Below, in pieces: positions 3,976-61,619 of a stretch of 64,000 nt of DNA. Made by a program: the position numbers and the translations under genes. Below the pieces are notes generated by a model. The model was not told the origin of the DNA and did not search any database. It was given only the letters and a program-made list of their open reading frames with translations. The DNA lies in contig CAYTBB010000001.1 of assembly GCA_964435965.1 (NCBI GenBank), forward strand, positions 6,715-70,714, given 5' to 3'. Positions within the stretch are counted from its first letter, which is position 1, and the number at the start of each line of letters is the position of its first letter. The DNA comes from an uncultured Dehalococcoidales bacterium. Lineage in GTDB: Bacteria > Chloroflexota > Dehalococcoidia > GIF9 > AB-539-J10.

Positions 3976-5141
3976 AGAAAATAGCTATCTTAGGTTCAAC
4001 GGGTTCCGTAGGACAGCAAGCTCTGGGGGTGATATGTGCCCTTTCTGCTAGGTTTCGAGTGATAGCTTTAGCCGGGGGTGAAAATCTCAAGCTTCTGGAA
4101 AAGCAGATAGCCAAATTTCAACCTGACATGTTTTATTCCGCAGTCGAGCCTGACTTTACCTATAGAGGCGAATTCTTATCCATGGAACAAATAGCCAGCC
4201 ATCCAGACGTTGATCTGGTCATCGTAGCCACCTCAGGCAAAGCAGGGCTGTATCCTACTTTAGCAGCTCTAAAGGCAGGCAAAACAGTAGCTTTAGCCAA
4301 CAAGGAAGTATTGGTGATGGCAGGGGAAATTATCATTCGTGAGGCTAAAAGCTATCAAGCTCAAATTCTGCCTATTGATAGTGAGCTTAGTGCTATCTGG
4401 CAATGCTTGCAGGGGGAGGAAAATAAACCAAAAAGAATTTTTCTAACTGCTTCTGGTGGACCTTTCTACCACTATTCCCAGCCAGAATTAAGAAAAGTAA
4501 CGGTAGAGCAAGCTCTTCGTCACCCTATATGGAAAATGGGAAGCAAGATCACCATTGACTCGGCCACACTTCTGAATAAAGGATTAGAGGCTATTGAAGC
4601 TCATTGGCTTTTCGCTATTCCTTTTGAGAGCATTGAGATATTAATTCATCCACAAAGTATCATTCACTCCATGGTAGAGTTTATGGACGGTTCAATAAGA
4701 GCGCAGCTCAGCTTTCCTGATATGAGGTTGCCCATCCAATATGCCCTTTGTTACCCTGAGAGGTTGCTCAATTCAGAGCTACCACGCCTCAACTGGAGCA
4801 AAATTAAATCTCTAAACTTCGAGCCAGTAGAGCAAAACAGATTTCCTTGTCTTAAATTGGCGCTAGATGCGGGTAAGCAAGGAGGAACTTATCCCGCAGT
4901 GCTTTGTGCTGCCGATGAAGTGGCCGTAGGGCTTTTTCTTAACAAGCGTATAAGCTTTACTGATATAGCTAGAATAGCGCAAGAAACTTTGGAACAGCAT
5001 CGGGGCATTGCTCAGCCATCCTTGGAAGAAATTCTAGTTGCCGATGCTTGGGCAAGGGAATATGTTGAGCGTCTTTTCATTTGTCACCCTCACCTTATTC
5101 CTCTCCCTTCAAGGGAGAGGTTAGGTGAAGGAGGTCAGTGA
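3963..5141 (+). CDS. dxr: 1-deoxy-D-xylulose 5-phosphate reductoisomerase
   Basis: The NADPH-binding N-terminus ILGSTGSVGQQAL is present and Dxr-family similarity runs throughout. The last ~19 codons are encoded by a palindromic repeat (see findings). Confidence 0.93.
   Translation: MDSVKKIAILGSTGSVGQQALGVICALSARFRVIALAGGENLKLLEKQIAKFQPDMFYSAVEPDFTYRGEFLSMEQIASHPDVDLVIVATSGKAGLYPTLAALKAGKTVALANKEVLVMAGEIIIREAKSYQAQILPIDSELSAIWQCLQGEENKPKRIFLTASGGPFYHYSQPELRKVTVEQALRHPIWKMGSKITIDSATLLNKGLEAIEAHWLFAIPFESIEILIHPQSIIHSMVEFMDGSIRAQLSFPDMRLPIQYALCYPERLLNSELPRLNWSKIKSLNFEPVEQNRFPCLKLALDAGKQGGTYPAVLCAADEVAVGLFLNKRISFTDIARIAQETLEQHRGIAQPSLEEILVADAWAREYVERLFICHPHLIPLPSRERLGEGGQ
5084..5120. repeat. family-2 palindromic repeat TCACCCTCACCTTATTCCTCTCCCTTCAAGGGAGAGG
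   Basis: This 37-nt stretch matches 50071-50107 with 3-4 mismatches and contains the perfect palindrome CCTCTCCCTTCAAGGGAGAGG at 5100-5120. Related copies occur at 7489-7524 and 37595-37632. Confidence 0.55.
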
Positions 5142-6454: not shown

Positions 6455-7512
6455 CACGTCGAGTTTCCAGACCTATAAGAATTGGCAGAGTAACTGTTGG
6501 TGGCGATGCTCCAGTTGTGGTGCAAGCGATGACCAAAACTGACACTCGTGATATTCCTGCCACTATAAACCAAATTAAGCAGCTAGAAGATTGTGGTTGC
6601 GAACTAGTGCGACTAGCAGTTCCAGATAAGGAAGCGGCGGAAAGCATTTCAGCGATAAAAAAGAGTGTTTCCTTGCCTCTTATTGCTGATATTCATTTCG
6701 ACTACCGTTTGGCTTTAGCTGCTTTACAGGCTGGCGCCGATGGACTTCGCCTTAATCCGGGCAATATTCGCGATAAAGAGCAAATTGCCAAGGTAGTGGC
6801 TGCAGCTAAAGAAAAGGAAACACCCATCCGCGTCGGAGTAAATGCCGCTAGTTTACCAGCAGACTTTGAGCTTGATGCTCCGCTATCTAAGCGGATGGTT
6901 AACATGGCATTGCAACAAATAAAGCTTTTGGAGAGCCTGGACTTTAATTTAATTAAGGTTTCTCTTAAAGCCTTTGATGTGCCCACTACCATTCAGGCTT
7001 ACCAGCTAATTGCCGACAAAATACCTTATCCGTTACACTTAGGTATCACTGAAGCTGGGCTTCCTCAATATGGAGCTATACGCAGTGCTGTCGGCATTGG
7101 CATACTTCTTTATCAGGGGATTGGCGATACTATCCGTGTTTCCCTTACTGCTCACCCATGTGAGGAGATATTTGTCGCTTATGAAATTCTAAAAAGCCTT
7201 GGACTTCGTCAGCGAGGGCCAACCTTGGTAAGCTGTCCTTCCTGTGGGCGAGCTGAAGTTGACGTCGTTACCCTGGCTGAAGCTGTGGACAAATATCTGA
7301 AGAAGATAACCAAGCCCATTAAAGTGGCGGTTATGGGTTGTGTAGTTAACGGACCCGGCGAGGCTAGAAATGCTGATCTGGGCATTGCTTGCGGCAAGGG
7401 GAAGGGTGCTATATTTAGAAAGGGCAGCGTGGTAAAGACAGTGAATGAGGAAAGCCTATTGGAAAGCTTAGTGGCGGAAATAAATTCCTTCTCTCTTAGG
7501 GGAGAGGGCTAG
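6451..7512 (+). CDS. ispG: 4-hydroxy-3-methylbut-2-enyl diphosphate synthase
   Basis: GcpE-family similarity extends throughout (RIGRVTVGGDAPVVVQAMTKTDT...CPSCGRAEVD...MGCVVNGPGEA). The stop codon overlaps the preceding gene by 4 nt. Confidence 0.93.
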   Translation: MTRRVSRPIRIGRVTVGGDAPVVVQAMTKTDTRDIPATINQIKQLEDCGCELVRLAVPDKEAAESISAIKKSVSLPLIADIHFDYRLALAALQAGADGLRLNPGNIRDKEQIAKVVAAAKEKETPIRVGVNAASLPADFELDAPLSKRMVNMALQQIKLLESLDFNLIKVSLKAFDVPTTIQAYQLIADKIPYPLHLGITEAGLPQYGAIRSAVGIGILLYQGIGDTIRVSLTAHPCEEIFVAYEILKSLGLRQRGPTLVSCPSCGRAEVDVVTLAEAVDKYLKKITKPIKVAVMGCVVNGPGEARNADLGIACGKGKGAIFRKGSVVKTVNEESLLESLVAEINSFSLRGEG

Positions 7513-7524
7513 GGTGAGGGTGAA
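7489..7524. repeat. family-2 repeat, reverse orientation (…GGGGAGAGGGCTAGGGTGAGGGTGAA)
   Basis: The reverse complement TTCACCCTCACCCTAGCCCTCTCCCC resembles the 5084 and 50071 copies. It lies immediately before the proS start, and the GGTGAGGGTGA segment doubles as a Shine-Dalgarno-like sequence. Confidence 0.4.
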
Positions 7525-7530
7525 ATAAAA

Positions 7531-11491: not shown

Positions 11492-13909
11492 TCAATCTCT
11501 TAAAGTAGCACCTAGTTCTTGATGTAATCTATCTACAATCCTCTGATGGGGTCTATTAACCTCTTCGTCGGTTAAAGTATGCTCAGGTGATTGATAAACA
11601 ATCCTTATAGCGAAGGATTTCTTGCCTTCAGGTATTTGCTCACCTCGATAAAAGTCAAAGAGCGTGACTTTCTTTACTAGCGGGAAGCTTCGGATTACAT
11701 CCTCCACCTGCTGATAGCTTACTTGCTTATCTATTACTAAGGCAATGTCTCTAGTTATGTTGGGAAACCGTGGGATAGGCTGATACTGCTTTACTTTGAT
11801 TGTTTTGCTCAGCAACTTCTCTATATCCATTTCAATAAGATAAACAGCATCAGAAAGCTCGAAGGCTTGTGCTACCTTGGGATGCAAGTTACCTACAATA
11901 CCCACTTTATCAGCGCCGATGATTATATTAGCTGCCCTTCCAGGTAATAGGCTTTCATCATCACTGGCCCCAAAGGTTGCTTCTAGTCCCAATTGGTTCA
12001 AAAGGTTCTCTACTACTCCCTTAGCATCAAAAAAATTGAGCTGCTCCTTATTACCGTGCCAGGACAATTCTGCCTCTGGGCCGCTAAGTGCAGCACAAAG
12101 CATTTCCTTTTCTTGTGGCAGCTCATTCCCTTGTGGCAAGAATATCTTGCCGATTTCAAATAATCTTATGCTCCCTTCCTCAACCCTTTGATTGTGTACC
12201 AAGGTAGTTAGCAAGCCAGGACGCAAAGTAGTACGCAAGTATTCCTGCTCCTTGGTCATAGGGTTAGCTACTTTCAAAGATGTAACTTTCAGCTTGAGCC
12301 TCGGAGAAATTTTTTGCAGCCTCTCTAAGCTAGTCAAAGAATAGGTCAGTATTTCTTGAAAACCGCAGCCGGTGAGAATATTTCCTAATCTTTGCTTGAG
12401 ATTGCTTCGCTGCACTCGCAATGACAACCTTGATTCCTGTTGAGGGAAGGGAGAGCTAAGCCTGGTAACAGGAACTTGGTCATAGCCGATAATGCGAACC
12501 ACCTCTTCTACAAGATCAGCAGAGCAGCTAATGTCGCTGCGCCAATAAGGAGCCACTACCAAGATTTGTGACGCTGAGTTGGCATGCTGACATTCAAAGC
12601 CCAAGGATTTTAATACTTTAAGAATCTTAGCTAATGGTACCTCTAAGCCTGAAAGTCGCTTCACCTCCTCAGCAGAGAGCAAGATGCCCTTTGGCTGTGA
12701 TTTCCCAGGATAAACATCTATTATGCTCTTAGCTGCCTTGCCGCCAGCCAGCTCCAAGAGCAATTGGGTAGCTCGCTTCAGTGGTAGCAGTGGTAAGTCA
12801 GGATTTAGCCCTTTATCGAAGCGAATAGAAGCCTCACTTTGCAAATTAAGGCAATGGCATCCTTGACGAATGATTGCTTGGTTGAAATTTGCTGACTCTA
12901 GGAGAATAGAAGTGGTTTTATCTGCAACCTCGGTATCCAATCCTCCCATAATTCCAGCAATAGCAACAGCCTTTTCTTTGTCAGCAATGACTAAAGTATC
13001 GGGGCTAAGAACACGCTCTATTCCATCAAGGGTGGTTATAGTTTCGCTATTTCTAGCCCGACGGACAATAATCTGTTTGCCTTCAAGTTCATGATAGTCA
13101 AAAGCATGGAGAGGCTGCCCATATTCCAGCATTACGTAATTGGTAACATCAACCACATTGTTAATAGGACGCATGCCATAGCTACTCAGGCGATACTGTA
13201 GCCAATTAGGAGAAGGGGCTATCTTAATCCCTATAATTAAGCTGGCACAGTACCTAGGACATAAACTTGGTTCAATTATGTCAACAGAGACAAAAGAATC
13301 TATCGGAGTCTCTGTTTCTTCATAATGAATCTCGGGCAAATGAAGTGCTTGCTCAGTAAGAGAGGCAATTTCTCTAGCAATGCCAATTATGGATAAGCAA
13401 TCTGGGCGATTGGGCGTTATATCTAAATCAAAAATAACATCGCCTAAATAGTCTCTAAGAGGCATACCTATAGGAGCTTCTGATGGTAATACCATGATGC
13501 CCCCGTGACTATCGGAGATCCCCAATTCCTTTTCAGAGCAAACCATGCCCTCAGAAAGAACGCCACGGATTTTAGCTGGCTTTAGCAAAATAGGTTTCCC
13601 AGTATGACCATCTATAAGTTGTGCTCCCACAGAGGCGAAAGGCACCTTCTGCCCGAGGCTAATGTTTGGGGCACCGCAAACCACAGTAACCTGCTGGGGG
13701 TCGAGATTAACAGTAGCTAGCCTTAGGCGATCTGCGTTGGGATGAGGATTTAAAGCCGTTACTTCTCCTACTACTACGTTGTTCCAGGTGCTGCCTGTAG
13801 TCTGTATGTCTTTGGCTTCCACGCCAGCCATAGTTAGCCTTCTAGCTAGCTCTTTAGGAGCAAGTTTGATGTCACTATAATCTTTAAGCCATTTAAGCGA
13901 AGCCTTCAT
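11492..13909 (-). CDS. pheT: phenylalanyl-tRNA synthetase beta subunit
   Basis: The protein is 805 aa and starts MKASLKWLKDYSDIKLAPKELARRLTMAGVE, with B3/4 and B5 domains and an FDX-ACB-like C-terminus. Confidence 0.93.
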   Translation of the reverse strand: MKASLKWLKDYSDIKLAPKELARRLTMAGVEAKDIQTTGSTWNNVVVGEVTALNPHPNADRLRLATVNLDPQQVTVVCGAPNISLGQKVPFASVGAQLIDGHTGKPILLKPAKIRGVLSEGMVCSEKELGISDSHGGIMVLPSEAPIGMPLRDYLGDVIFDLDITPNRPDCLSIIGIAREIASLTEQALHLPEIHYEETETPIDSFVSVDIIEPSLCPRYCASLIIGIKIAPSPNWLQYRLSSYGMRPINNVVDVTNYVMLEYGQPLHAFDYHELEGKQIIVRRARNSETITTLDGIERVLSPDTLVIADKEKAVAIAGIMGGLDTEVADKTTSILLESANFNQAIIRQGCHCLNLQSEASIRFDKGLNPDLPLLPLKRATQLLLELAGGKAAKSIIDVYPGKSQPKGILLSAEEVKRLSGLEVPLAKILKVLKSLGFECQHANSASQILVVAPYWRSDISCSADLVEEVVRIIGYDQVPVTRLSSPFPQQESRLSLRVQRSNLKQRLGNILTGCGFQEILTYSLTSLERLQKISPRLKLKVTSLKVANPMTKEQEYLRTTLRPGLLTTLVHNQRVEEGSIRLFEIGKIFLPQGNELPQEKEMLCAALSGPEAELSWHGNKEQLNFFDAKGVVENLLNQLGLEATFGASDDESLLPGRAANIIIGADKVGIVGNLHPKVAQAFELSDAVYLIEMDIEKLLSKTIKVKQYQPIPRFPNITRDIALVIDKQVSYQQVEDVIRSFPLVKKVTLFDFYRGEQIPEGKKSFAIRIVYQSPEHTLTDEEVNRPHQRIVDRLHQELGATLRD

Positions 13910-20698: not shown

Positions 20699-20706
20699 AG
20701 CAATAT

Positions 20707-20735
20707 GTCATTGCGAGTGAAGCGAAGCAATCCCC
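20707..20735. repeat. family-1 repeat head GTCATTGCGAGTGAAGCGAAGCAATCCCC (copy F) forming the 5' extension of the next ORF
   Basis: The motif GTCATTGCGAG...GCGAAGCAATC matches the copies at 25311, 41043 and 50834. Confidence 0.5.
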
Positions 20736-20776
20736 AGCTTGTAATAAAGCTTCCACCTCCTCAGCTAAAAGGTAAG

Positions 20777-24783: not shown

Positions 24784-26091
24784 TTAACTCTTGAGCCCAG
24801 TTACAACCTCCTCTGGACTAGTAATTCTGCCTAGAATAGCGCTAGCGGCAGCTACTACAGGACTTGCCAAATAGACCTCGGACTGAGGGCTTCCCATTCT
24901 GCCAACAAAATTTCGGTTGGTGGTAGATAAACAGCGCTCACCAGCGGCTAAAACCCCCATGTGTCCACCAAGACAAGGCCCACAAGTAGGAGTGCTTACT
25001 ACAGCCCCAGCTTCTATAAAAGTTTCTATTAGCCCCTCTCTCAAAGCATCAAGATAAACCTTCTGCGAGCCTGGAATAATGATACATCTAATTTCTGGAT
25101 GTATTTGCCTTCCTTTGAGGAGTTTAGCCGCTACTCTCAAATCACCAAGGCGACCATTGGTGCAACCGCCGATAACCACCTGATCTAGTTTTATGTTACC
25201 CACCTGGCTTACAGGTTTAGTATTGGAGGGAAGATGAGGGAAAGCCACCTGAGGCTCAATTTTGGACACCTCATATTCTCTGATTTTGGCATATTCAGCA
25301 TCTTTACATTGAGATTGCTTCGTCGCTGACGCTCCTCGCAATGACGTAGGGGATGGCTCGCAATGACGGAGGGACACGTGCGCTTTAATATATTCCTCGG
25401 CCTTAGCATCTACACAAAAAATGCCAGCCTTAGCTCCAGCTTCGATGGCCATATTTGCCATAGTAAAGCGCCCATCCATTGATAGCTCATCAACTGCTTC
25501 ACCCCTAAACTCCATAACCGAGTAAAGCGCTCCATCTACACCAATATCTCCGATGGTGTAAAGAATAATATCCTTGCCACTAACCCATTTGGGCAGCTTC
25601 CCATGGTAAATAAACTTAATCGTTTGTGGCACCTTCATCCATATTTCGCCGGTAGCCATAGCCACAGCAATGTCAGTTGAACCCATGCCTGTGGCAAAAG
25701 CTCCCAGGGCACCATAAGTACAAGTATGGGAATCAGCGCCAACAATGACTTGCCCAGACAAGACCAAGCCTTGCTCAGGCAAGAGCACATGCTCAATCCC
25801 CATTCGCCCTACCTCAAAGTAAATCAGTCCCTGTTCCTTAGCGAACTCACGCATCAGCTTTGCTTGTCCAGCAGATGCTATATCTTTATTGGGGCAAAAA
25901 TGATCGGGAACCATGACTACCTTTGCAGGGTCAAACACCTTTGATATTCCAAGCCGTTGAAACTCTTTTATGGCTAAGGGGGCAGTTATATCATTGGCTA
26001 AAACTAAATCAACTCTGACATTTATAAACTCGCCAGGCTTAACTTCCTTCTTGCCACTATGAGCTGCTAAGATCTTCTCAGCTAAAGTCAA
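24784..26091 (-). CDS. leuC: 3-isopropylmalate dehydratase large subunit (archaeal type) carrying an in-frame repeat-derived insertion
   Basis: The 435-aa protein has an aconitase-family catalytic domain with Cys ligands (GGCTNG, TCGPCLG). The segment [25 protein letters not shown] is translated from repeat copy G. Confidence 0.9.
25311..25368. repeat. family-1 repeat (copy G): two tandem GTCATTGCGAG heads plus a GCGACGAAGCAATCTC tail, inside leuC
   Basis: The plus strand reads GAGATTGCTTCGTCGCTGACGCTCCTCGCAATGACGTAGGGGATGGCTCGCAATGACGG, which matches copy H almost base for base. Confidence 0.6.
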
Positions 26092-26103: not shown

Positions 26104-26508
26104 CTAGCCATGAACCTTGGGAATCATTAAAACACCCGCAGTGATGAGAGCCGCAATGATGGAAATCAAGTATAGACCAGCGCCAGCAGCTAAACCTATG
26201 GCAGCGCTCACCCAGACGCTTGCTGCAGTGGTTAGTCCGGCTACACCCTCTCCACGCATGCCACGAAAGATAACGCCAGCACCAATGAACCCGACTCCAG
26301 CTACTACACCAGCGGCAACTCGTGAAGGATCCACTGCACCACTGAAGCCAAAAATGGAAGCTACGGTGAAAAGGGCTGCCCCCAGGGCAATCAAAATGTG
26401 AGTGCGCAGCCCTGCTGTTTTACTAGCTCGCTCACGTTGATAACCAATGCCTGCTCCTAGAGCAGCAGCTAAAAACAGGCGCAATATCATTTCCAGCCAT
26501 GGGCTCAA
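26104..26508 (-). CDS. MgtC/SapB-family membrane protein
   Basis: The 134-aa protein has 4 TM helices and the MgtC N-domain pattern GAGIGYQRERASKTAGLRTH. It is embedded between leuA and leuC. Confidence 0.7.
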   Translation of the reverse strand: MSPWLEMILRLFLAAALGAGIGYQRERASKTAGLRTHILIALGAALFTVASIFGFSGAVDPSRVAAGVVAGVGFIGAGVIFRGMRGEGVAGLTTAASVWVSAAIGLAAGAGLYLISIIAALITAGVLMIPKVHG

Positions 26509-34189: not shown

Positions 34190-34340
34190 TTACTTGTAGG
34201 CCCTGAGCCTTTCGCTTCCTGTCATTCTGAATTCTTCACTCCTTGTCATTCTGAGGGAGGGAAGCGACCGAAGAATCTCATTGCGCTCAGGACAGGCTCA
34301 GCGAAAAATCTAGAGCCCCTTCACTTCATTCAGGGTGACA
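34190..34340. repeat. family-1 dispersed repeat, long form (copy A) with two TGTCATTCTGA heads and a CAGGGTGACA terminal inverted repeat
   Basis: The copy reads ...CTTGTAGGCCCTGAGCC...TGTCATTCTGAATTCTTCACTCCTTGTCATTCTGAGGGAGGGAAGCGACCGAAGAATCTCATTGCGCTCAGGACAGGCTCAGCGAAAAATCTAGAGCCCCTTCACTTCATTCAGGGTGACA. It is homologous to copies B, C, D and E. Confidence 0.65.
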
Positions 34341-36093: not shown

Positions 36094-36168
36094 TTCACTT
36101 TAGTGTCATTCTGAGAGAGCGTGGCGACCGAAGAATCTTAGAGACACTTCGCTTCGCTCAGGGTGACA
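36094..36168. repeat. family-1 repeat, short form (copy B)
   Basis: The copy reads TTCACTTTAGTGTCATTCTGAGAGAGCGTGGCGACCGAAGAATCTTAGAGACACTTCGCTTCGCTCAGGGTGACA. Its TIRs are TGTCATTCTGAG and CTCAGGGTGACA. Confidence 0.65.
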
Positions 36169-40758: not shown

Positions 40759-41727
40759 TTGGGAATGTCTGTTTTATTACAAACTGACTTACCTCTTCCC
40801 TTATTCCGTCGCGGCAAGGTAAGAGATGTCTATGACTTAGATGACAAACTTCTTATAGTGGCTACTGACCGCATCTCTGCTTTTGATTTTGTCCTGCCTT
40901 GTGGCGTCCCCAACAAAGGGAAGGTTCTTAATCAACTCTCAGCCTTTTGGTTTGAGAAAACAGCCCATATTGTGCCCAATCATCTCATCAAGGTAATTGA
41001 TAGCTTGGATGCGTTTGAGGATGTCATCGCGAGGGCTGAAAGCCCGAAGCAATCTCAAGAGAAGAAAGATTCCTCGCTTACGCTCGGAACAAGCCTTATT
41101 GGCCGCTCCATGCTTGTGGCTAAAGCTGAGCGTATTCCTGTAGAATGTGTTGTTCGAGGTTACTTATCTGGCTCAGCTTGGGCAGAGTATAAGAAAAGTG
41201 GTACTGCTGGCGATATTCGCTTACCAGCCGGGATGAAGGAAAGTCAAGAATTGTCTCACCCTATCTTTACTCCTACTACCAAAGGAGAGGCAGAGCATGA
41301 CCGTCCTTTAACTAATCAAGATATAAGGAACCTTGAGGAAATATCATTGCAGGCGGGGCGAAGCAAGCTCAATTTGATTAAGGAATTGGAGGAGAAAAGC
41401 TTGCTCATTTACCGCTACGCACGAGATTATGCTAAAAACAAGGGCATCATGATTGCCGACACCAAGTTTGAGTTCGGCTTTGTCAATGGTGAACTAACGC
41501 TTATTGACGAGCTATTAACGCCGGACTCGAGTCGCTTTTGGGATGCTAGCCAATACGAAGTTGGTCATTCACAACCCAGCTTTGACAAACAACCAGTTCG
41601 TGATTGGCTTTCAGCCTCAGGATGGAACAAAGAGCCACCGGCGCCTATGTTGCCATTGGAGGTAATTGAGGCTACCACACAACGGTATAACAGAATCTAT
41701 CAGTTGTTTACTGGAAAACGTGTCTAG
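40759..41727 (+). CDS. purC: SAICAR synthetase (long, eukaryote-like form) carrying an in-frame repeat-derived insertion
   Basis: The 322-aa protein contains GKVRDVYD...VATDRISAFD...ADTKFEFG...LTPDSSRFW. The segment DVIARAESPKQSQEKK is encoded by a family-1 repeat. Confidence 0.9.
   Translation: MGMSVLLQTDLPLPLFRRGKVRDVYDLDDKLLIVATDRISAFDFVLPCGVPNKGKVLNQLSAFWFEKTAHIVPNHLIKVIDSLDAFEDVIARAESPKQSQEKKDSSLTLGTSLIGRSMLVAKAERIPVECVVRGYLSGSAWAEYKKSGTAGDIRLPAGMKESQELSHPIFTPTTKGEAEHDRPLTNQDIRNLEEISLQAGRSKLNLIKELEEKSLLIYRYARDYAKNKGIMIADTKFEFGFVNGELTLIDELLTPDSSRFWDASQYEVGHSQPSFDKQPVRDWLSASGWNKEPPAPMLPLEVIEATTQRYNRIYQLFTGKRV
41043..41076. repeat. family-1 repeat copy inside purC (GTCATCGCGAGGGCTGAAAGCCCGAAGCAATCTC)
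   Basis: The head GTCAT(T/C)GCGAGG and tail CGAAGCAATCTC match copies G and H. Confidence 0.55.
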
Positions 41728-50060: not shown

Positions 50061-50070
50061 GATAATCTTT

Positions 50071-50107
50071 TCACCCTCACCTTAATCCTCCCCCGTCAAG
50101 GGAGAGG
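50071..50107. repeat. family-2 palindromic repeat TCACCCTCACCTTAATCCTCCCCCGTCAAGGGAGAGG
   Basis: This is a near-identical copy of 5084-5120. It lies in the hisG-hisD intergenic spacer and is followed (50114-50127) by a family-1 head fragment GGCTCGCAATGACA. Confidence 0.5.
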
Positions 50108-50141
50108 AGAATTGGCTCGCAATGACAAAAGGGAGAGTTAA

Positions 50142-51569
50142 TCATGAGAGCCCTCTGCGTAATGTTTGAATAAGAAATTCAATCTTCTCCTTTTTACCAG
50201 GGAAGTCAAGGCTGCCTTTGTTTCCGATTAGACAAGCAGTGGATTTGAAAAGCACATCGATAACTTTTAAGTCATGTTGCGCCAGTGTTTTCCCAGTTTG
50301 GGTATTGTCAATGAGCAAATCGGCATCCTCGGGCAGGAAAACTTCACTCGCTCCCCAAGTTGGGATTACCTTGCACGGGTTGATATAGTTATCTCGAAGA
50401 TACTTATCAGCGATGTTTACGTATTCTGAAGCTACTCTTAATAGAGTAAGTTTACCACTTTGAATAAGCGATCTTAAGTCAGCAACGTCGGTTATAGGCA
50501 TATCTTGACTCACTGCAGCCACAATTTTAACCATACCAAAGCCCAGATCAAGCAACTCCTTCACTGGGCTTGAGGGGAAACGATAGAGGTGTTCCAGCAA
50601 CCAATCCTTACCGGTTATGGCTAAATCAAAATTGCCATTAGCCACTTGAAGAGGCATATCCTGAGGTCTGATTACCTTAATGCCAAGCCAATCTAAATCG
50701 GAGGAGGGGCGACGGTTCAATACTTCCTCTGTATACCCCTGAATGTTAAGCCCACTTCGCTTCAAAAACTGCGCCGTAGGTGGTTGCTGATGTCCATCAG
50801 GCAAAGCTAGCTTTATTTCCTTCGCTTGCCAATGAGATTGCTTCGTCGCTTCACTCCTCGCAATGACCGTACTAGGGCTTGTAACAACATTATTTCGGCT
50901 TGCAATAACATTGCTGAAACAATTCAATATCTGGCTCAGATCTTTATTCTCCAAGCTTTCTCGGTTAGCGATTAGAAAGGCTGTGACCGGGAGTAACTTT
51001 ATTAGGGGAACCAAACTTTGCTCCTTTATCTCATTTTCATTCCTTGCCCACAGTATTGCCAGATCAGCACTATCTGGGGGATAAATTTCAGCAGCTCCCC
51101 ACACCGGGAAAATCTTAAAGGCCTTCATCCTGAGATTTAAGGCAAAAACTTGAGCTAAATTAGGGTACTCGCTTACTATGCGCCAGTTATCCCGCTTGGC
51201 TAACAATCCGTCAAGATTGGATATCCCTGCTTGGTAGCTGGCCACCGCATATACACCACCCTCACCGTAATTTAGACTTGATATTTTTACTAAGGCGCTC
51301 GCTGGATACCTCGCCAAAAGTTCCTCAACCCAATCCAAGCCACATATTCCCAGGTCATAATTGCCTATGGCTACTTGCATGGGAATATCTTTCTCCTGAA
51401 ATACCTTGGCCGAAAGCCAAGAGAACCTTCTCGATTGAAGGCGATATCGCCTCGTCTTATTGCTGTAGCCTTTAATGCCCACCCCTGCCCCTTTAAGCAA
51501 GTTAGCCGTAGTCAGTAAGAACCTACCTTTAGGCAAGGCGAGTTTGATATGGCACGGTTGGTATTCCAC
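50142..51569 (-). CDS. hisG: tandem double-domain ATP phosphoribosyltransferase (two short-form HisG domains fused through a repeat-derived linker)
   Basis: The N-half reads IKLALPKGRFL...KDIPMQVAIGNYDLGICGLDW...DSADLAILWAR. The C-half reads IKLALPDGHQQ...QDMPLQVANGNFDLAITGKDW...DADLLIDNTQTGKTLAQHDLKV. The PRPP-loop TGxT motif is kept only in the C-half. Confidence 0.85.
   Translation of the reverse strand: MEYQPCHIKLALPKGRFLLTTANLLKGAGVGIKGYSNKTRRYRLQSRRFSWLSAKVFQEKDIPMQVAIGNYDLGICGLDWVEELLARYPASALVKISSLNYGEGGVYAVASYQAGISNLDGLLAKRDNWRIVSEYPNLAQVFALNLRMKAFKIFPVWGAAEIYPPDSADLAILWARNENEIKEQSLVPLIKLLPVTAFLIANRESLENKDLSQILNCFSNVIASRNNVVTSPSTVIARSEATKQSHWQAKEIKLALPDGHQQPPTAQFLKRSGLNIQGYTEEVLNRRPSSDLDWLGIKVIRPQDMPLQVANGNFDLAITGKDWLLEHLYRFPSSPVKELLDLGFGMVKIVAAVSQDMPITDVADLRSLIQSGKLTLLRVASEYVNIADKYLRDNYINPCKVIPTWGASEVFLPEDADLLIDNTQTGKTLAQHDLKVIDVLFKSTACLIGNKGSLDFPGKKEKIEFLIQTLRRGLS
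50834..50868. repeat. family-1 repeat (copy H) forming the inter-domain linker of hisG
   Basis: The plus strand reads GAGATTGCTTCGTCGCTTCACTCCTCGCAATGACC. On the coding (minus) strand it is followed by two degenerate head-like units, aatgttattgcaagc and aataatgttgttacaagc. Confidence 0.6.
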
Positions 51570-52896: not shown

Positions 52897-52948
52897 CCTA
52901 CCTGTCATTCTGAGCGTAGCGAAGAATCTCATACCGCTCAGGGTGACA
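52897..52948. repeat. family-1 repeat, minimal short form (copy C)
   Basis: The copy reads CCTACCTGTCATTCTGAGCGTAGCGAAGAATCTCATACCGCTCAGGGTGACA. Its TIRs TGTCATTCTGAGCG and CGCTCAGGGTGACA are perfect apart from the central TT/GG. Confidence 0.65.
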
Positions 52949-53018: not shown

Positions 53019-54332
53019 ATGAATAGAACTTTGCTCAGGATTTTCCTTCTTGCCTTGTTTATAATCACAATAGTTGGGGCTTTGGGAGGCAGCATAATTA
53101 GCGCTTCCAGTCCAACGATTGAAATCCTTCATGTGGAAGGCACTATTGTGCCAGTGGTGGCTGATTACATTGATCGAGGTATTAGCCAGGCTGAAGATGA
53201 GAATGCTACTGTTTGCATTATTGAATTAAATACGCCAGGAGGGCTTCTCACCGCAACGGAGAAAATAGTCCAGAGAATTATGAATGCCGATGTGCCTGTA
53301 GTAGTTTACGTTTCCCCTAAAGGTGCCTGGGCTGCTTCAGCGGGAACTTTCATTACTTTATCTGCTCATATAGCCGCTATGACATCGGGCACCACTATTG
53401 GTGCTGCCCATCCTGTAGCTGCCGGGGGAGAGGAAATACCGGAAGCCCAAATGGAGAAGATAGTCGAATTTTCGGCTAAATGGATGAGGACCATTGCCGA
53501 GGAGCGGGGTCGCAATATGGAAGAAGCTGAGCTAGCCGTGACAGAAAGTAAATCCTTTACTGATGTTGATGCCCTGGAATCTAACCTTATTGATATGAGA
53601 GCTGATAATTTAGAAAGCCTTATTTCCCAAATCAATGGCTGGAGAGTTACTTTAGCCAATGGCGAGGAAGTTACTATTAACACTACGGGCTACGAGACAA
53701 TTAGAAATGAAATGAATGCCATTGAGCAGTTCTTGCAAGCCATAAGTGACCCAAATATTGCCTACATCCTGCTTACTCTGGCTACCATAGGGCTAATCAC
53801 TGAGATTTCCAACCCAGGGATGGTTATTCCCGGGGTAGCCGGTGGCATAAGCTTATTCCTGGCGTTTTACTCCTTGGGAGTACTTAATGCTTACTGGGGG
53901 GGTATAGCGCTTATTCTGCTTGCCGTTGGACTTTTCGTCGCCGAGTATTTCACCGCTAGCTTTGGTCTATTTACCGCTGGAGGTATAATCTCGCTGGTTG
54001 TTGGCTCCCTAATCTTATTCAGCTATAGTCCAGGAATAGAAGTAAATCGTGGGCTAATTGCCGGCGTCACAGCTGCCATTGCCGCCTTTGGTATCTTTGT
54101 CATTGGTGCTATCATTAGAGGACAGAGACGCCGCAAAGCTACTGGCCCTGAGGGAATGGTGGGGAGGCTAGCTATAGCCAAAACGCCTCTAGACCCCACA
54201 GGCACAGTTCTAGCTGAAGGCGAACTTTGGACAGCCATAGCTGAAGGGGGTAAAATAGAACCACATGAGAAGGTGGTCATAACCAAAGTAGAAGAACTGA
54301 AATTGTGGGTGGCAAAAAAATCTAAAGAATAG
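53019..54332 (+). CDS. NfeD-family membrane-bound serine protease (ClpP-like domain, TM region, C-terminal OB-fold domain)
   Basis: The protein is 437 aa with a signal/TM segment, the ClpP-class block GGLLTATEKIVQRI...SAGTFITLSAHIAAM, 4-5 TM helices and a C-terminal NfeD beta-domain. Confidence 0.85.
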   Translation: MNRTLLRIFLLALFIITIVGALGGSIISASSPTIEILHVEGTIVPVVADYIDRGISQAEDENATVCIIELNTPGGLLTATEKIVQRIMNADVPVVVYVSPKGAWAASAGTFITLSAHIAAMTSGTTIGAAHPVAAGGEEIPEAQMEKIVEFSAKWMRTIAEERGRNMEEAELAVTESKSFTDVDALESNLIDMRADNLESLISQINGWRVTLANGEEVTINTTGYETIRNEMNAIEQFLQAISDPNIAYILLTLATIGLITEISNPGMVIPGVAGGISLFLAFYSLGVLNAYWGGIALILLAVGLFVAEYFTASFGLFTAGGIISLVVGSLILFSYSPGIEVNRGLIAGVTAAIAAFGIFVIGAIIRGQRRRKATGPEGMVGRLAIAKTPLDPTGTVLAEGELWTAIAEGGKIEPHEKVVITKVEELKLWVAKKSKE

Positions 54333-54341
54333 GAGGGTAGT

Positions 54342-54752
54342 TTGCTATTCATGGAATCGCCCTTTGTCGAATCATTACCTGAAGAGTTAGAAGCACTATT
54401 TAAGGCGTTATCTAAAGCGTTATTTAAAGTATCAGAAGCACTATCTATGGGAATAACAGGGCCTATTATTGTAGTCATAATTTTTGCCGCCGCCTTTGTT
54501 ATCTTCGTCATTTTTGCTATCGTTAAAGGTCAAAGGCGGAAACTCACCGCTGGTGTAGAGAATATGGTGGGAAAAGTGGCTGTAACGCAAACAGAGCTCA
54601 ATCCTACAGGCACAGTTCTGGCTGAAGGCGAGCTTTGGACAGCCATAGCTGAGGGGAGTAAAATAAAACCTGATGAGGAGGTGGTCATAACTAAAGTAGC
54701 AGGCTTGAAATTGTGGGTAACAAAAAAATCTAAAGAAAAGGAGGACAAATAA
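54342..54752 (+). CDS. short NfeD-like protein (TM + OB-fold), recent partial duplicate of the preceding gene's C-terminus
   Basis: The C-terminal ~55 residues (PTGTVLAEGELWTAIAEGSKIKPDEEVVITKVAGLKLWVTKKSKE) are nearly identical to the C-terminus of 53019..54332. The nucleotide sequences of the two regions are ~90 % identical. Confidence 0.7.
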   Translation: MLFMESPFVESLPEELEALFKALSKALFKVSEALSMGITGPIIVVIIFAAAFVIFVIFAIVKGQRRKLTAGVENMVGKVAVTQTELNPTGTVLAEGELWTAIAEGSKIKPDEEVVITKVAGLKLWVTKKSKEKEDK

Positions 54753-57340: not shown

Positions 57341-58480
57341 TCAACTATATTTGCTTAGAATAGCTTTGAAGGAATCTCTGACAAAAGCTAGCTGTTCTTT
57401 ATCAGCGGCAAAGGTAGAGAGTTTAAAAGCTTTTGTCAGACCCGGCTGCAGCCCCCAAATGCCTCTGCCCTTCAGCTCCTTGTACAGGAAATATCCCCTC
57501 TCTCGGACATTCTTGGAGATGTCATAGAGCATCGGAGCTTCAAAGTGCAGTAAGTCATGTCTATGCGGTTTCTCTCCTAGCTGCTTAAAACCCAATTTCT
57601 CAAGTTCAGTGGAAAGCCATTGCGCCTTTAATACTTGCTCAGCCCAATGGTTAACCCTTTCTTTCACATAAGGGAAGGAAGCCATAAGCGTTACCAGCGG
57701 GACGCCCCTCAAGGTACAGCCAAGAAGCTCAACCTCTTTATTGCTATATGCCTCAGATTTCCTCAATACTATTTCTTCCCACTTCTTTTTCATTCCCAAA
57801 ACTCCACAAGGCCCGGCAGAAGCCATGCTTTTGTGTCCACTACCAACAATGAAGTCAGCTCCAACATCGTTCATTTTGATCGGCATTCTGCCCACCGCAT
57901 ATGCACCATTAAGGATATAAGGGATACCATATTCTTGAGCAATTTTCCCTAGCTTTGTGGCATCGGAAAGATTTCCATAATTGCCATCGGGGTAAGTTAA
58001 TAAAATTAGTTTAGGATTATTCTTTTTTATAACTGGTATGTAATCGTTAACATCAATCCTGAATTCTGGATAACCGGAGTGAGGCACTTCGATAACATTC
58101 AACCCTACCCTTTCAGCGGCAACAATTGTAGTGTAATGCCTGCTACTATCGACAATGATTGAATCACCTGGCTTGGCCAAAGAATGCATTACCATGTATT
58201 TAGCTTCTCTTGCCCCATGAGTTATGGTAGCAACATCGCAACCCAAAAATTGGGGTAAAAGTTCCCGCACAAACTCTCGGACAGGAGGATTTGTTATCTC
58301 GCACAAGCTGCCAAGGCAAAAATCACACACGGAATACCCATCTCCAAATTCCACTAATGCTTCCCTAGCAGCATCAGTGAGAATGCCTCCCGTTTGAAGA
58401 GGCATAAGATTTATAAGGCCTTTGTGCAATCTTTGTAATGCACCAAGTTTCTGTAATGCTTTATTTGTTGGCTGCTTCAT
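57341..58480 (-). CDS. Sep-tRNA:Cys-tRNA synthase (SepCysS), PLP-dependent
   Basis: The protein is 379 aa with a PLP-lysine region (IVGSGHKSMASAGPCGVLG) and a size typical of SepCysS. It overlaps SepRS by 4 nt. Confidence 0.75.
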   Translation of the reverse strand: MKQPTNKALQKLGALQRLHKGLINLMPLQTGGILTDAAREALVEFGDGYSVCDFCLGSLCEITNPPVREFVRELLPQFLGCDVATITHGAREAKYMVMHSLAKPGDSIIVDSSRHYTTIVAAERVGLNVIEVPHSGYPEFRIDVNDYIPVIKKNNPKLILLTYPDGNYGNLSDATKLGKIAQEYGIPYILNGAYAVGRMPIKMNDVGADFIVGSGHKSMASAGPCGVLGMKKKWEEIVLRKSEAYSNKEVELLGCTLRGVPLVTLMASFPYVKERVNHWAEQVLKAQWLSTELEKLGFKQLGEKPHRHDLLHFEAPMLYDISKNVRERGYFLYKELKGRGIWGLQPGLTKAFKLSTFAADKEQLAFVRDSFKAILSKYS

Positions 58481-60000
58481 GAAGTTTTCCTTTTTAGTGC
58501 CTGCGATTTTATGGTTACAAATACAGCACCACCAACTCCTATCTTCTTCTGCTGCCCTTCTATGTACTCCTGAATAGCCTCTGGAATTCGCAGATTAAGG
58601 TCAGAGAGATGCTTTATTGTTTTCACCTGATAAGTTAAGTTTTCATCGCTGCTTTCTATTAAAGCTGCTGCCCCCATTGCTATAGCACGCATGTAGTTTA
58701 TACCTGAATGTACTCCTGAGGGGACAACGTCACTATAGATGCTACCATTAGCTACGCAAATCTCGTTAAAACCAGCGGGACCAATCAACCTCTTACCTGT
58801 CTCCGTTTCTACAACTTTTACCTGTATGGAGTCATCCTCCCAGGCTAAAAACTCACATGGGGCAATCTCATCTTTATACTTTCGGGCAGTTTCCTCGATT
58901 GCCTTGGCTATCTTTTTTCCTTTGGCAGTCTTGGGACTTGTTATAGAGGTAATGGACTTAGCTATATCTTCATCACTATATTCAGCTATGGAAAATTGGG
59001 GATATGCCAGCTTCCTTATATCATCCACTTCATATAGAATCATCGCTAGCCGCTCAACCCCCAAGCCAGCATTAAATACGGGATACCGGATGTTAAAGTT
59101 TGCTAAGGATATAGGAGAGTACATGCCAATATCGGCAACCTCGAGCCAATTCCCTTTGTAGTTAATGAAAGCCTCTTGCTCCTGGCCGGGCGCATAATAC
59201 TTAGATGTTGCTATCTTTGTCTCAAATTTGATATCTACAAAGCCATATTGCCGTAAGACGTCTTTGGTTATTTCTCTTCCGGCATCCAAGGACATTTTGG
59301 GGGCCATTACTACGACTGATGCTGAATGATGAATCCGCAAATGGTGAGCATCTTCCCTTTGCTCATTGCGGTATCGAGGCCCTACCGAAAATAAGGCCAG
59401 CGGAAATTTAGCTTTGTCCTGCAACGCTGCTAAAGTGTGAAACCATGTAGCTGTCATATGGCTTCTTAAAGTCTTATTAGAAGGTAACGGTCGTAGCTTT
59501 TTTAGCTCAGGAAAAACCTTGTCTAGAAGCCCTGTAGCTTGGTTGTCAGTGATATCCAGTCCAGCAATGAACTCCTCAATGAGGTTATCTGCCTCGATTT
59601 CTCCCTTCTTATACCTTCTAAGAATTGACCTCAATTTCTCACTTTCAATTTCTCCTGCTATCTCCTTTATTTGAGCTATTTTTTGGGCACTCAGCCCTAT
59701 CTCAGGGCGAGGTAATTCAGCCAAATAAAAAACTCTGTCAAGGATAAGCCGAGCCTCCGGGCCATACTGCTTAGAGACATCATAATCGGGCAAAATTGTA
59801 AGATTCTCAACTTCATCAAAGCCAAGATTTAACAGGATTTCCCTCGATTGTTGAACCAATTGGCGCACAAGGTGAGGTTTCCCTTTCCTTTCTAGAGAGA
59901 TTTTGGTACCCTTTGGAATAAGTTTTCCTGTTGATACCCAAGCCTCGGTAAAATTCTTTTTTGCTTGCGACTTTATTTCGTTTAAATCAAACGTTGCCAT
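58477..60000 (-). CDS. O-phosphoseryl-tRNA(Cys) synthetase (SepRS)
   Basis: The protein is 507 aa with class II PheRS-like motifs and SepRS-specific blocks (DRVFYLAELPRPEIG, KTLRSHMTATWF, NAGLGVERLAMIL, APCEFLAWED). Confidence 0.85.
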   Translation of the reverse strand: MATFDLNEIKSQAKKNFTEAWVSTGKLIPKGTKISLERKGKPHLVRQLVQQSREILLNLGFDEVENLTILPDYDVSKQYGPEARLILDRVFYLAELPRPEIGLSAQKIAQIKEIAGEIESEKLRSILRRYKKGEIEADNLIEEFIAGLDITDNQATGLLDKVFPELKKLRPLPSNKTLRSHMTATWFHTLAALQDKAKFPLALFSVGPRYRNEQREDAHHLRIHHSASVVVMAPKMSLDAGREITKDVLRQYGFVDIKFETKIATSKYYAPGQEQEAFINYKGNWLEVADIGMYSPISLANFNIRYPVFNAGLGVERLAMILYEVDDIRKLAYPQFSIAEYSDEDIAKSITSITSPKTAKGKKIAKAIEETARKYKDEIAPCEFLAWEDDSIQVKVVETETGKRLIGPAGFNEICVANGSIYSDVVPSGVHSGINYMRAIAMGAAALIESSDENLTYQVKTIKHLSDLNLRIPEAIQEYIEGQQKKIGVGGAVFVTIKSQALKRKTS

Positions 60001-61495: not shown

Positions 61496-61619
61496 GCTTC
61501 CTGGCAACGGCCTATTTTCCCAAAGGGTTGCCCCTCAAGTATCGTCTGCGCTGGAGCGTTTCACTTCCGTATTCGGGATGGGAACGGGTGGTTCCACTCC
61601 GCTCTAGTCACCAAGAAGC
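61496..61619 (-). rRNA. rrf: 5S ribosomal RNA (orphan; no 23S/16S in window)
   Basis: The reverse complement reads GCTTCTTGGTGACTAGAGCGGAGTGGAACCACCCGTTCCCATCCCGAATACGGAAGTGAAACGCTCCAGCGCAGACGATACTTGAGGGGCAACCC...GCCGTTGCCAGGAAGC. It contains the universal 5S core CCCATCCCGAA.ACGGAAGTGAAACGC, and its 5' and 3' ends pair to form helix I. Confidence 0.85.

Follow-up and report, generated by a model that had tools for sequence, protein, structure and literature searches.

Why does the leuC gene of an uncultured Dehalococcoidales bacterium contain codons that resemble repeats elsewhere in the same DNA, and do these codons represent an inserted element or old protein sequence? The gene lies in a stretch of 64,000 nucleotides, hereafter the window (assembly GCA_964435965.1, contig CAYTBB010000001.1, positions 6,715 to 70,714 of the forward strand), and all coordinates below are those of the window (Table 1). 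With a probability that we put at roughly 85%, a dispersed stem-loop repeat of about 28 to 37 nt, of the repetitive extragenic palindromic (REP) or Rickettsia palindromic element (RPE) type and with a 5' tag of CGTC or TGTC, was inserted into the codons of a length-variable loop of LeuC, where it is read through in frame. An initial annotation, made from the sequence of the window, had already proposed an in-frame repeat insertion at this place.

The leuC product matched the sequence of M. jannaschii LeuC in the PDB (4KP1/4NQY; E=5e-125), and it has the PF00330 domain, the aconitase fold, the cluster cysteines (C310, C370, and C373, all invariant), and the leuD and leuB neighbors that characterize the LeuC/aconitase family. 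The gene is part of a cluster with the order ilvD-ilvB-ilvN-ilvC-leuA-mgtC-leuC-leuD-leuB-cimA, and the nearest relatives of its product are encoded in Dehalococcoidia metagenome-assembled genomes. The mgtC-family gene between leuA and leuC (26104-26508, minus strand) encodes a small membrane protein and occupies the same place in the gene calls of the relatives L081, L083, L084, L208, L209, and L210.

On the minus strand, positions 25368-25310 read CGTCATTGCGAGccatcccctaCGTCATTGCGAGgagcgtcagcGACGAAGCAATCTCA, with the layout CGTCATTGCGAG-ccatcccctaC-GTCATTGCGAG-gagcgtcagc-GACGAAGCAATCTCA. The two heads (25357-25367 and 25335-25345) and the tail (25311-25326) were found where the initial annotation had placed them, and the leuC frame passes through the repeat without a break, as it had also stated. 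The insert measures 59 nt as a whole. An orphan CGTCATTGCGAG head comes first, a single complete unit of 37 nt (CGTC-ATTGC-GA-(hairpin)-GAA-GCAAT-CTCA) follows it, and the net gain is 39 nt or 13 codons. Such motifs are not expected by chance, since the head GTCATTGCGAG had eight matches in the window with at most one mismatch (0.71 expected; none of 100 shuffles reached 8) and the tail had three (0.05 expected).

Comparison with orthologues indicated that the segment was gained. Between the YxK and DAEY motifs, the window LeuC has 27 residues, while 14 residues were counted at eight of nine outgroup Dehalococcoidia loci, the ninth (L001) having a repeat insert of its own, and in 44 of 96 diverse LeuC representatives (50%-identity clusters; range, 7 to 40). 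In a relative that is 82% identical (P0107/L085), the 14-residue loop contains no repeat DNA and reads ..aaagagcatggcaattatccttattcaatatatcgaacagataaaggt... The gain of about 13 residues estimated in the initial annotation holds against relatives and diverse representatives, and amounts to only 8 against the solved M. jannaschii LeuC; moreover, in an orthologue alignment, named at the outset as the comparison that could expose the segment as ancestral protein sequence, the lengths do differ here. Because empty-site orthologues exist and the DNA is near-identical to other copies in the window, the segment is best regarded as an insertion of a dispersed repeat. The same insert was present in independent ENA, NCBI, and JGI assemblies, and an assembly artifact was rejected on this ground. 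An intein or a group I/II intron was also rejected (no Rfam match; the 20-residue insert consists of repeat sequence), as was a pseudogene (leuC open reading frame [ORF] intact and under purifying selection).

Within the insert, the repeat is read in a changing frame, from head 1 (RHCE) through head 2 (SLRG) to the tail (ATKQSQ), and the register is restored jointly by the 22-nt spacing of the heads and a hairpin loop that is 1 nt longer. The orphan head is followed by CCA, and this head-plus-CCA module recurs in tandem in the relative L208, which has three heads, as well as in an intergenic copy at 50116 of the window. Downstream of the tail, the ancestral codons for PYSIYQS are absent in the window lineage and the tail-encoded KQSQ sits there instead; after-tail codons are kept in L208 (YTISQS), L210 (FSIVQS), and L001 (YSVYQS). 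This DNA comparison points to a deletion of the ancestral codons in the window lineage.

The repeat itself has a defined anatomy. In the DNA scanned, its canonical short form is (C/T)GTC-ATTGC-GA-GCGAAGC-GAA-GCAAT-C(T/C)(C/A), and in the long form the inner part is GGAGCGAAGCGAC. When 2.2 Mb of DNA was scanned for the skeleton GTC-N5-GA-G..C-GA(A)-N5-C, 80 of 196 candidates had perfectly complementary 5-nt arms, compared with 0.19 expected. These 80 comprised 10 arm sequences (ATTGC in 42, ATTCT in 23, and eight others in 15 altogether), all of which start with A and nine with AT, for instance, ATTGC/GCAAT, ATTCT/AGAAT, and ATGGC/GCCAT. Since ten different arm sequences all stay complementary, the arms covary. 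The inner hairpins likewise vary yet stay paired (GGGCT-GAA-AGCCC, GC-TTAA-GC, and GACCT-TT-AGGT) and contain U·G-compatible T/G pairs. RNA minimum-energy folds gave one architecture for copies with different inner hairpins, and in the leuC unit an outer stem of 5 bp is combined with internal loops of GA/GAA and GA/GA and with a GC hairpin on the inside; the segment between the internal loops is variable and measures 5 to 17 nt. Among 39 perfect-stem copies tallied from a list of 40, 25 have C, 13 have T, and 1 has G directly 5' of GTC. At the 3' end, the window copies have CTCA or CCCC, and many metagenome copies have CCA. An additional metagenome scan, made with a tail that had one base too many (GAAGNNAATC), is unfit as a test of covariation and still returned real variants. 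Rfam gave no match at the repeats, at either the gathering threshold or E<=1.

How LeuC accommodates the insert was addressed by structure prediction with AlphaFold2. An alignment of 63 homologues, all >80% identical, gave an unusable model (predicted local distance difference test [pLDDT], 44.7), and the prediction was rerun with representatives of 50%-identity clusters. The model from this diverse alignment had a mean pLDDT of 95.0 and template modeling (TM) scores of 0.88 to 0.91 against 4KP2 and 4KP1. Confidence was low at residues 241-250 (57), 251-260 (71), and the last five C-terminal residues (66), with all other blocks at 90 or more. The insert falls in the connecting loop between helix 229-238 and strand 269-274. 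Moreover, the leuC flanks diverge mostly at third codon positions (14% versus 7.7% overall for L082; 56% versus 27% for L207), so leuC is under purifying selection in the insert-bearing lineages. As the insert is, apart from the C-terminal end, the only part modeled poorly and the gene remains under purifying selection, the insert is read as a tolerated, translated loop, as far as sequence comparison and the predicted model go. The low model confidence and the length variability of the loop also suggest that it is exposed to solvent on the protein surface.

In the 120 LeuC homologues nearest to the window protein, loop length varies between 14 and 77 residues, and the loop is built from one to four heads of either the ATTGC or the ATTCT family, with the element read in three frames (VIAR.., SLRG.., and RHCE/CHSE). 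At the DNA level, the arrays at this site are runs of head modules in tandem, with a single complete unit behind them. A two-head architecture with a 14-nt inner segment is common to the window, L082, L083, L207, and L208. L084, the leuC flanks of which differ from those of the window by 7.2%, exactly as those of L082 do, has four ATTCT-family heads and a 77-residue loop, unlike the window array. At greater distance, the codons of the complete unit show no difference (0 of 33) between the window and L207 or L208, while the flanks differ by 23 to 27% overall, 50 to 56% at third positions, and 22 to 28% in the adjacent 20 codons; simple arithmetic from these flank rates gives a chance of ∼1e-4 or less for such identity in each comparison. 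The identity is confined to the element, which makes a long recombination tract unlikely. In L083, the unit has two changes, one in the tag and one in the hairpin loop, both at unpaired positions, and the orphan head differs at 11 of 32 positions, about the neutral rate. Clearly decayed versions of the repeat occur in L210 and L001. In addition, a composite peptide of ∼32 residues was found as VIARSEIPRLSLRGTASRSNLWAGSEQAPQSQ in PurC of P0283 and as AIARAEIPRLSLQGTESRSNFWTGTDEAPQSH in LeuC of L001 (10001-11332), and the composite VIARSEIPRLSLRGT..APQSQ is common to the two genes, which suggests, at the sequence level, that nested elements are moved or converted together. Masking of the loop left a neighbor-joining LeuC tree whose resolution was too low for insertion events to be counted.

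The element is not restricted to leuC. In a crude gene map with 59 ORFs over 93% of the window, it was found at nine loci, four of which are in frame and in the sense of the gene (leuC, pheT, purC, and a hisG-like gene); another four fall in the non-coding 7%, three of them as inverted pairs. In the product of pheT (gene 11492-13909), the copy is flanked by the B5 domain (residues 410-476) on one side and by the core domain (496-696) on the other. The net length of PheT differs by only ∼4 residues from that of S. haemolyticus PheT in the PDB. For purC, the pattern of empty and filled sites seen in leuC was repeated: the segment has 40 residues at empty sites and 50 in the window, and among 120 PurC homologues the site was either empty (40) or filled (50 to 70 residues), with an extra orphan head (+7 residues) in some relatives. 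Against yeast Ade1, the window PurC shows an 11-residue gap. A second, degenerate repeat (KDSSLTLGTS) follows the purC copy within 41022-41095 (plus strand). The stretch VILSEAKDL in some PurC homologues looks repeat-derived; it has the same length as the empty site and may be ancestral. The hisG-like gene (50142-51569, minus strand) encodes a protein of 475 residues with two HisG-like halves, to the fusion of which the repeat may have contributed. Just upstream of this copy lies a degenerate head-like stretch, NVIASRNNVV.

The short-form copy next to the nitroreductase gene supplies the called ATG of that ORF; it probably belongs to 5'-untranslated or intergenic DNA, and the downstream MSLEEAIASRRS is probably the true start. 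This copy is present at the matching position in L082 and L084. The intergenic composites share a pattern in which a GTCATTCTGAG..GAAGAATCTCA unit stands opposite an inverted GTCACCCTGAG unit, and the module CTCAGGACAGGCTCAGCGAA.. of the composite at 34221-34339 recurs in the L084 leuC insert, where it encodes AQGRLREESQ.

Table 1. Positions of leuC, the parts of its insert, and the other copies of the repeat and of its sister families in the 64-kb window
Feature	Position	Strand	Description
leuC (host gene)	24784..26091	-	3-Isopropylmalate/citramalate isomerase, large subunit; 435 aa; ORF intact
Complete repeat unit in leuC	25310..25346	-	CGTC-ATTGC-GA-GGAGCGTCAGCGAC-GAA-GCAAT-CTCA; LeuC residues 249-261
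Orphan head module in leuC	25347..25368	-	CGTCATTGCGAG + spacer CCATCCCCTA; encodes RHCEPSP(T), residues 242-249; without a tail of its own
Codons directly 3' of the tail	25299..25309	-	..CKDA; DNA compared with L208, L210, L001, and the empty L085
pheT copy, short form	12396..12426	-	TGTCATTGCGAG-TGCAGC-GAAGCAATCTCA; in frame, LSLRVQRSNL, residues 495-504
purC copy	41022..41057	+	Inner hairpin GGGCT-GAA-AGCCC; in frame, VIARAESPKQSQ; gene 40759-41727
hisG-like copy, long form	50832..50868	-	In frame, VIARSEATKQSH; linker of tandem HisG-HisG protein
Nitroreductase-side copy, short form	20706..20736	+	Overlaps the called ATG of the nitroreductase ORF; MSLRVKRSNPQ..
Sister-family composite	34221..34339	+	GTCATTCTGAG heads, GAAGAATCTCA tail, inverted GTCACCCTGAA partner; intergenic
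Sister-family inverted pair	36105..36167	+	GTCATTCTGAG.. facing inverted GTCACCCTGAG..; intergenic
Sister-family inverted pair	52904..52947	+	Intergenic

Other features of the window were recorded in passing. A third repeat family (..CCTCTCCCTTCAAGGGAGAGG.. / GGTGAGGGTGA) occurs at 5081-5120, 7500-7525, and 50068-50107; both dxr (..PLPSRERLGEGGQ) and ispG (..SLRGEG) take their final residues and stop codon from it, and one of its copies adjoins the orphan head at 50116. A gene with a SepSecS/SepCysS-type domain (PF05889) stands beside one for a class II PheRS-alpha-like synthetase of 507 residues (57341-60000, minus strand), and the pair looks like SepRS/SepCysS for indirect Cys-tRNA formation. 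A lone 5S rRNA gene was detected at 61499-61615 (minus strand), and the window holds neither a 16S nor a 23S rRNA gene. Finally, a 181-nt direct repeat with 82% identity (54156-54336 and 54564-54744, 408 nt apart) is placed around the end of an NfeD-like gene and the next ORF.

Among described systems, the anatomy of the element comes closest, judging by sequence, to the CGTC-tagged REP superfamily, the members of which share an unpaired CGTC/TGTC tag, A-T at the start of the stem, a 3' tail of a few bases, and the lack of a dedicated transposase (PMC3733652). This superfamily includes RPE-4 and RPE-6 of R. conorii and dRS3 of Neisseria (Di Nocera, De Gregorio, and Rocco 2013; PMC3733652); intragenic, in-frame CGTC and GTAG REPs, RPE-4 and RPE-6 among them, are on record, and CGTC repeats have been reported in five phyla, Chloroflexi not being one of them (PMC3733652). 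The likeness extends to the unpaired tetranucleotide tag (CGTC, with TGTC or CCTC allowed), which is contained in both leuC heads as part of CGTCATTGCGAG, to A-T at stem positions one and two, and possibly to a short unpaired 3' tail. Moreover, copies are dispersed, often as inverted intergenic dimers without a flanking transposase, and some lie wholly inside ORFs, in frame, adding 8 to 30 or more residues. Unlike the published consensus (a stem of 8 to 9 bp, a loop of 4 to 5 nt, and a CCA tail), the element has a contiguous stem of 5 bp followed by GA/GAA or GA/GA loops and a variable G...C hairpin, its tail is CTC(A) in this genome, and orphan heads form direct tandem arrays.

With regard to Rickettsia, RPE-1, attributed to Ogata et al. 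(2000, 2002), reportedly spans about 100 to 150 bp and encodes 30 to 50 residues. Both elements are found in frame in housekeeping genes, in many unrelated genes, and as a tolerated extra loop with the ORF kept; in contrast to the longer RPE-1, the unit described here has 28 to 37 nt, its hosts are uncultivated Dehalococcoidia known from metagenome assemblies, and its arrays turn over rapidly at one site between close relatives. The parallel with Rickettsia palindromic elements drawn in the initial annotation is therefore sound for behavior (in frame, ORF kept, variable low-confidence loop) and for kinship only partly, by way of the CGTC tag. Cyanobacterial small dispersed repeats (SDR), attributed to Elhai et al. 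(2008), are described as mobile repeats of very small size that form hairpins and may be located within conserved sequence. By description only, they resemble the present element in these respects and differ from it in sequence family and host phylum. The REPIN/RAYT system shares with it short, long-lived hairpin repeats that are conserved beyond neutral expectation and inverted doublets in intergenic DNA, and differs in having a GTAG rather than a CGTC/TGTC tag (Bertels and Rainey 2011; PMC3116915); the window showed no RAYT gene, and the leuC copy is a single unit with a direct orphan head rather than an inverted doublet. Full-text literature yielded no description of the repeat sequence or of REP/REPIN in Dehalococcoidia, and none of six element DNA or peptide strings was present in the supplementary tables of PMC3733652. 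Since the tag, the A-T-first stem, and the dispersal match, the stem differs, and no prior description was found, the element is regarded as a new family-level member of the REP/RPE kind.

We therefore favor, at the level of confidence given above, the following course of events. A dispersed repeat would have entered the codons of the length-variable connecting loop of LeuC and would be carried as a flexible surface loop without a catalytic role, and the tail-encoded KQSQ may have replaced the deleted ancestral PYSIYQS segment. The site would not be frozen: the arrays of close relatives differ while distant relatives keep a nucleotide-identical unit, and for this reason an element-directed process appears to be still active at leuC, be it copy-templated conversion, re-insertion, or slippage of head modules. 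By analogy, a possible driver would be a trans-acting enzyme that recognizes the hairpin, as RAYT/IS200-type HUH transposases do for REPs. Several observations weigh against this proposal. A scan of 40 window ORFs gave no transposase, RAYT, or Y1 domain, a result that concerns the window only, and no mobilizing enzyme is known for CGTC repeats (PMC3733652). The 14-nt inner variant GAGCGTCAGCGAC was seen, in the DNA scanned, only in leuC, as would be expected from constrained vertical inheritance more than from re-insertion of other copies; copies within this genome also differ from one another and, together with the restriction of that variant to leuC, this argues against a homogenizing master copy. 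Furthermore, single-copy folding energies were no better than those of shuffles, whether computed as DNA or RNA (z, +1.1 to -1.6), so that covariation is what the proposed structure stands on.

Part of this evidence would also suit a pure relic, that is, one ancient insertion followed by vertical inheritance and neutral decay with no process at work today, an account that we find doubtful though worth keeping in mind. The two-head, 14-nt architecture common to five lineages, the near-neutral decay of the orphan head, the decayed versions in L210 and L001, and the nitroreductase-side copy at a matching position in three genomes all agree with it; a relic would hardly stay identical in its complete unit while flanks diverge by 23 to 27% and third positions by 50 to 56%, nor does it explain why a relative diverged by 7% has a wholly different array from the other repeat family or why P0283 purC and L001 leuC share the VIARSEIPRLSLRGT..APQSQ composite. 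Alternatively, the embedded element could be functional as nucleic acid and kept by selection, as a structured RNA or single-stranded DNA motif within the coding region that, for instance, binds a protein, governs processing or stability of the mRNA, or makes translation pause where two domains meet. We consider this unlikely: although the identity extends to synonymous sites, both L083 changes are at unpaired positions, the use of three frames across lineages implies that conservation does not concern the peptide, each of the five in-gene copies has the sense orientation, and the T/G pairs of the inner hairpins are compatible with U·G pairing, there was no Rfam match even at E<=1, the folding energy is unremarkable, no terminator-like T-run follows the hairpin, and relatives with empty sites or decayed copies function without the element. 

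An adaptive role of the inserted peptide, which might bind metal or regulate this Fe-S enzyme as a loop rich in Cys and His, is very improbable; one frame does encode RHCE or CHSE, and arrays in this frame give repeated C-H-S-E motifs, but other lineages read VIAR.. or SLRG.. without Cys or His, and the loop varies from 14 to 77 residues and is modeled at low confidence. That there was no real insertion at all, the segment being an ancestral variable loop, an assembly artifact, or part of a pseudogene, is barely credible: loop length varies from 7 to 40 residues across the family, but the orthologue alignment, with empty sites in outgroups and in a close relative, rules it out, and the near-identity to dispersed copies, the independent assemblies, and the intact ORF under purifying selection speak against it as well. 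Returning to the inserted repeat, the more specific idea that its complete leuC unit is kept at the nucleotide level, by selection or by site-directed copying, is a tentative one to which we assign a minor chance. If true, the Dehalococcoidia repeats would be functional nucleic-acid modules in coding sequence or active loop-rewriting cassettes, and some loops of housekeeping proteins would be hypervariable by design of the element, with the repeats not being inert passengers.

The behavior of translated repeats is known from Rickettsia and other bacteria, and here it is unusually frequent and fast-changing. Translated repeats of the REP/RPE type have so far been regarded chiefly as something peculiar to Rickettsia and a small number of proteobacteria, and the present ones belong to uncultivated Dehalococcoidia, in which 4 of ∼59 ORFs in a single 64-kb window carry in-frame copies. 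For annotation, this means that odd low-complexity peptides (VIARSEATKQS, SLRGA.., and CHSERSEESQ) and length differences in Dehalococcoidia proteins are repeat-derived rather than errors. With an empty site, one to four heads, two repeat families, three frames, and 14 to 77 residues, the leuC site provides a natural experiment at one loop of a well-understood enzyme, and thus a tractable system for how such elements move or convert and how much random sequence a protein loop absorbs.

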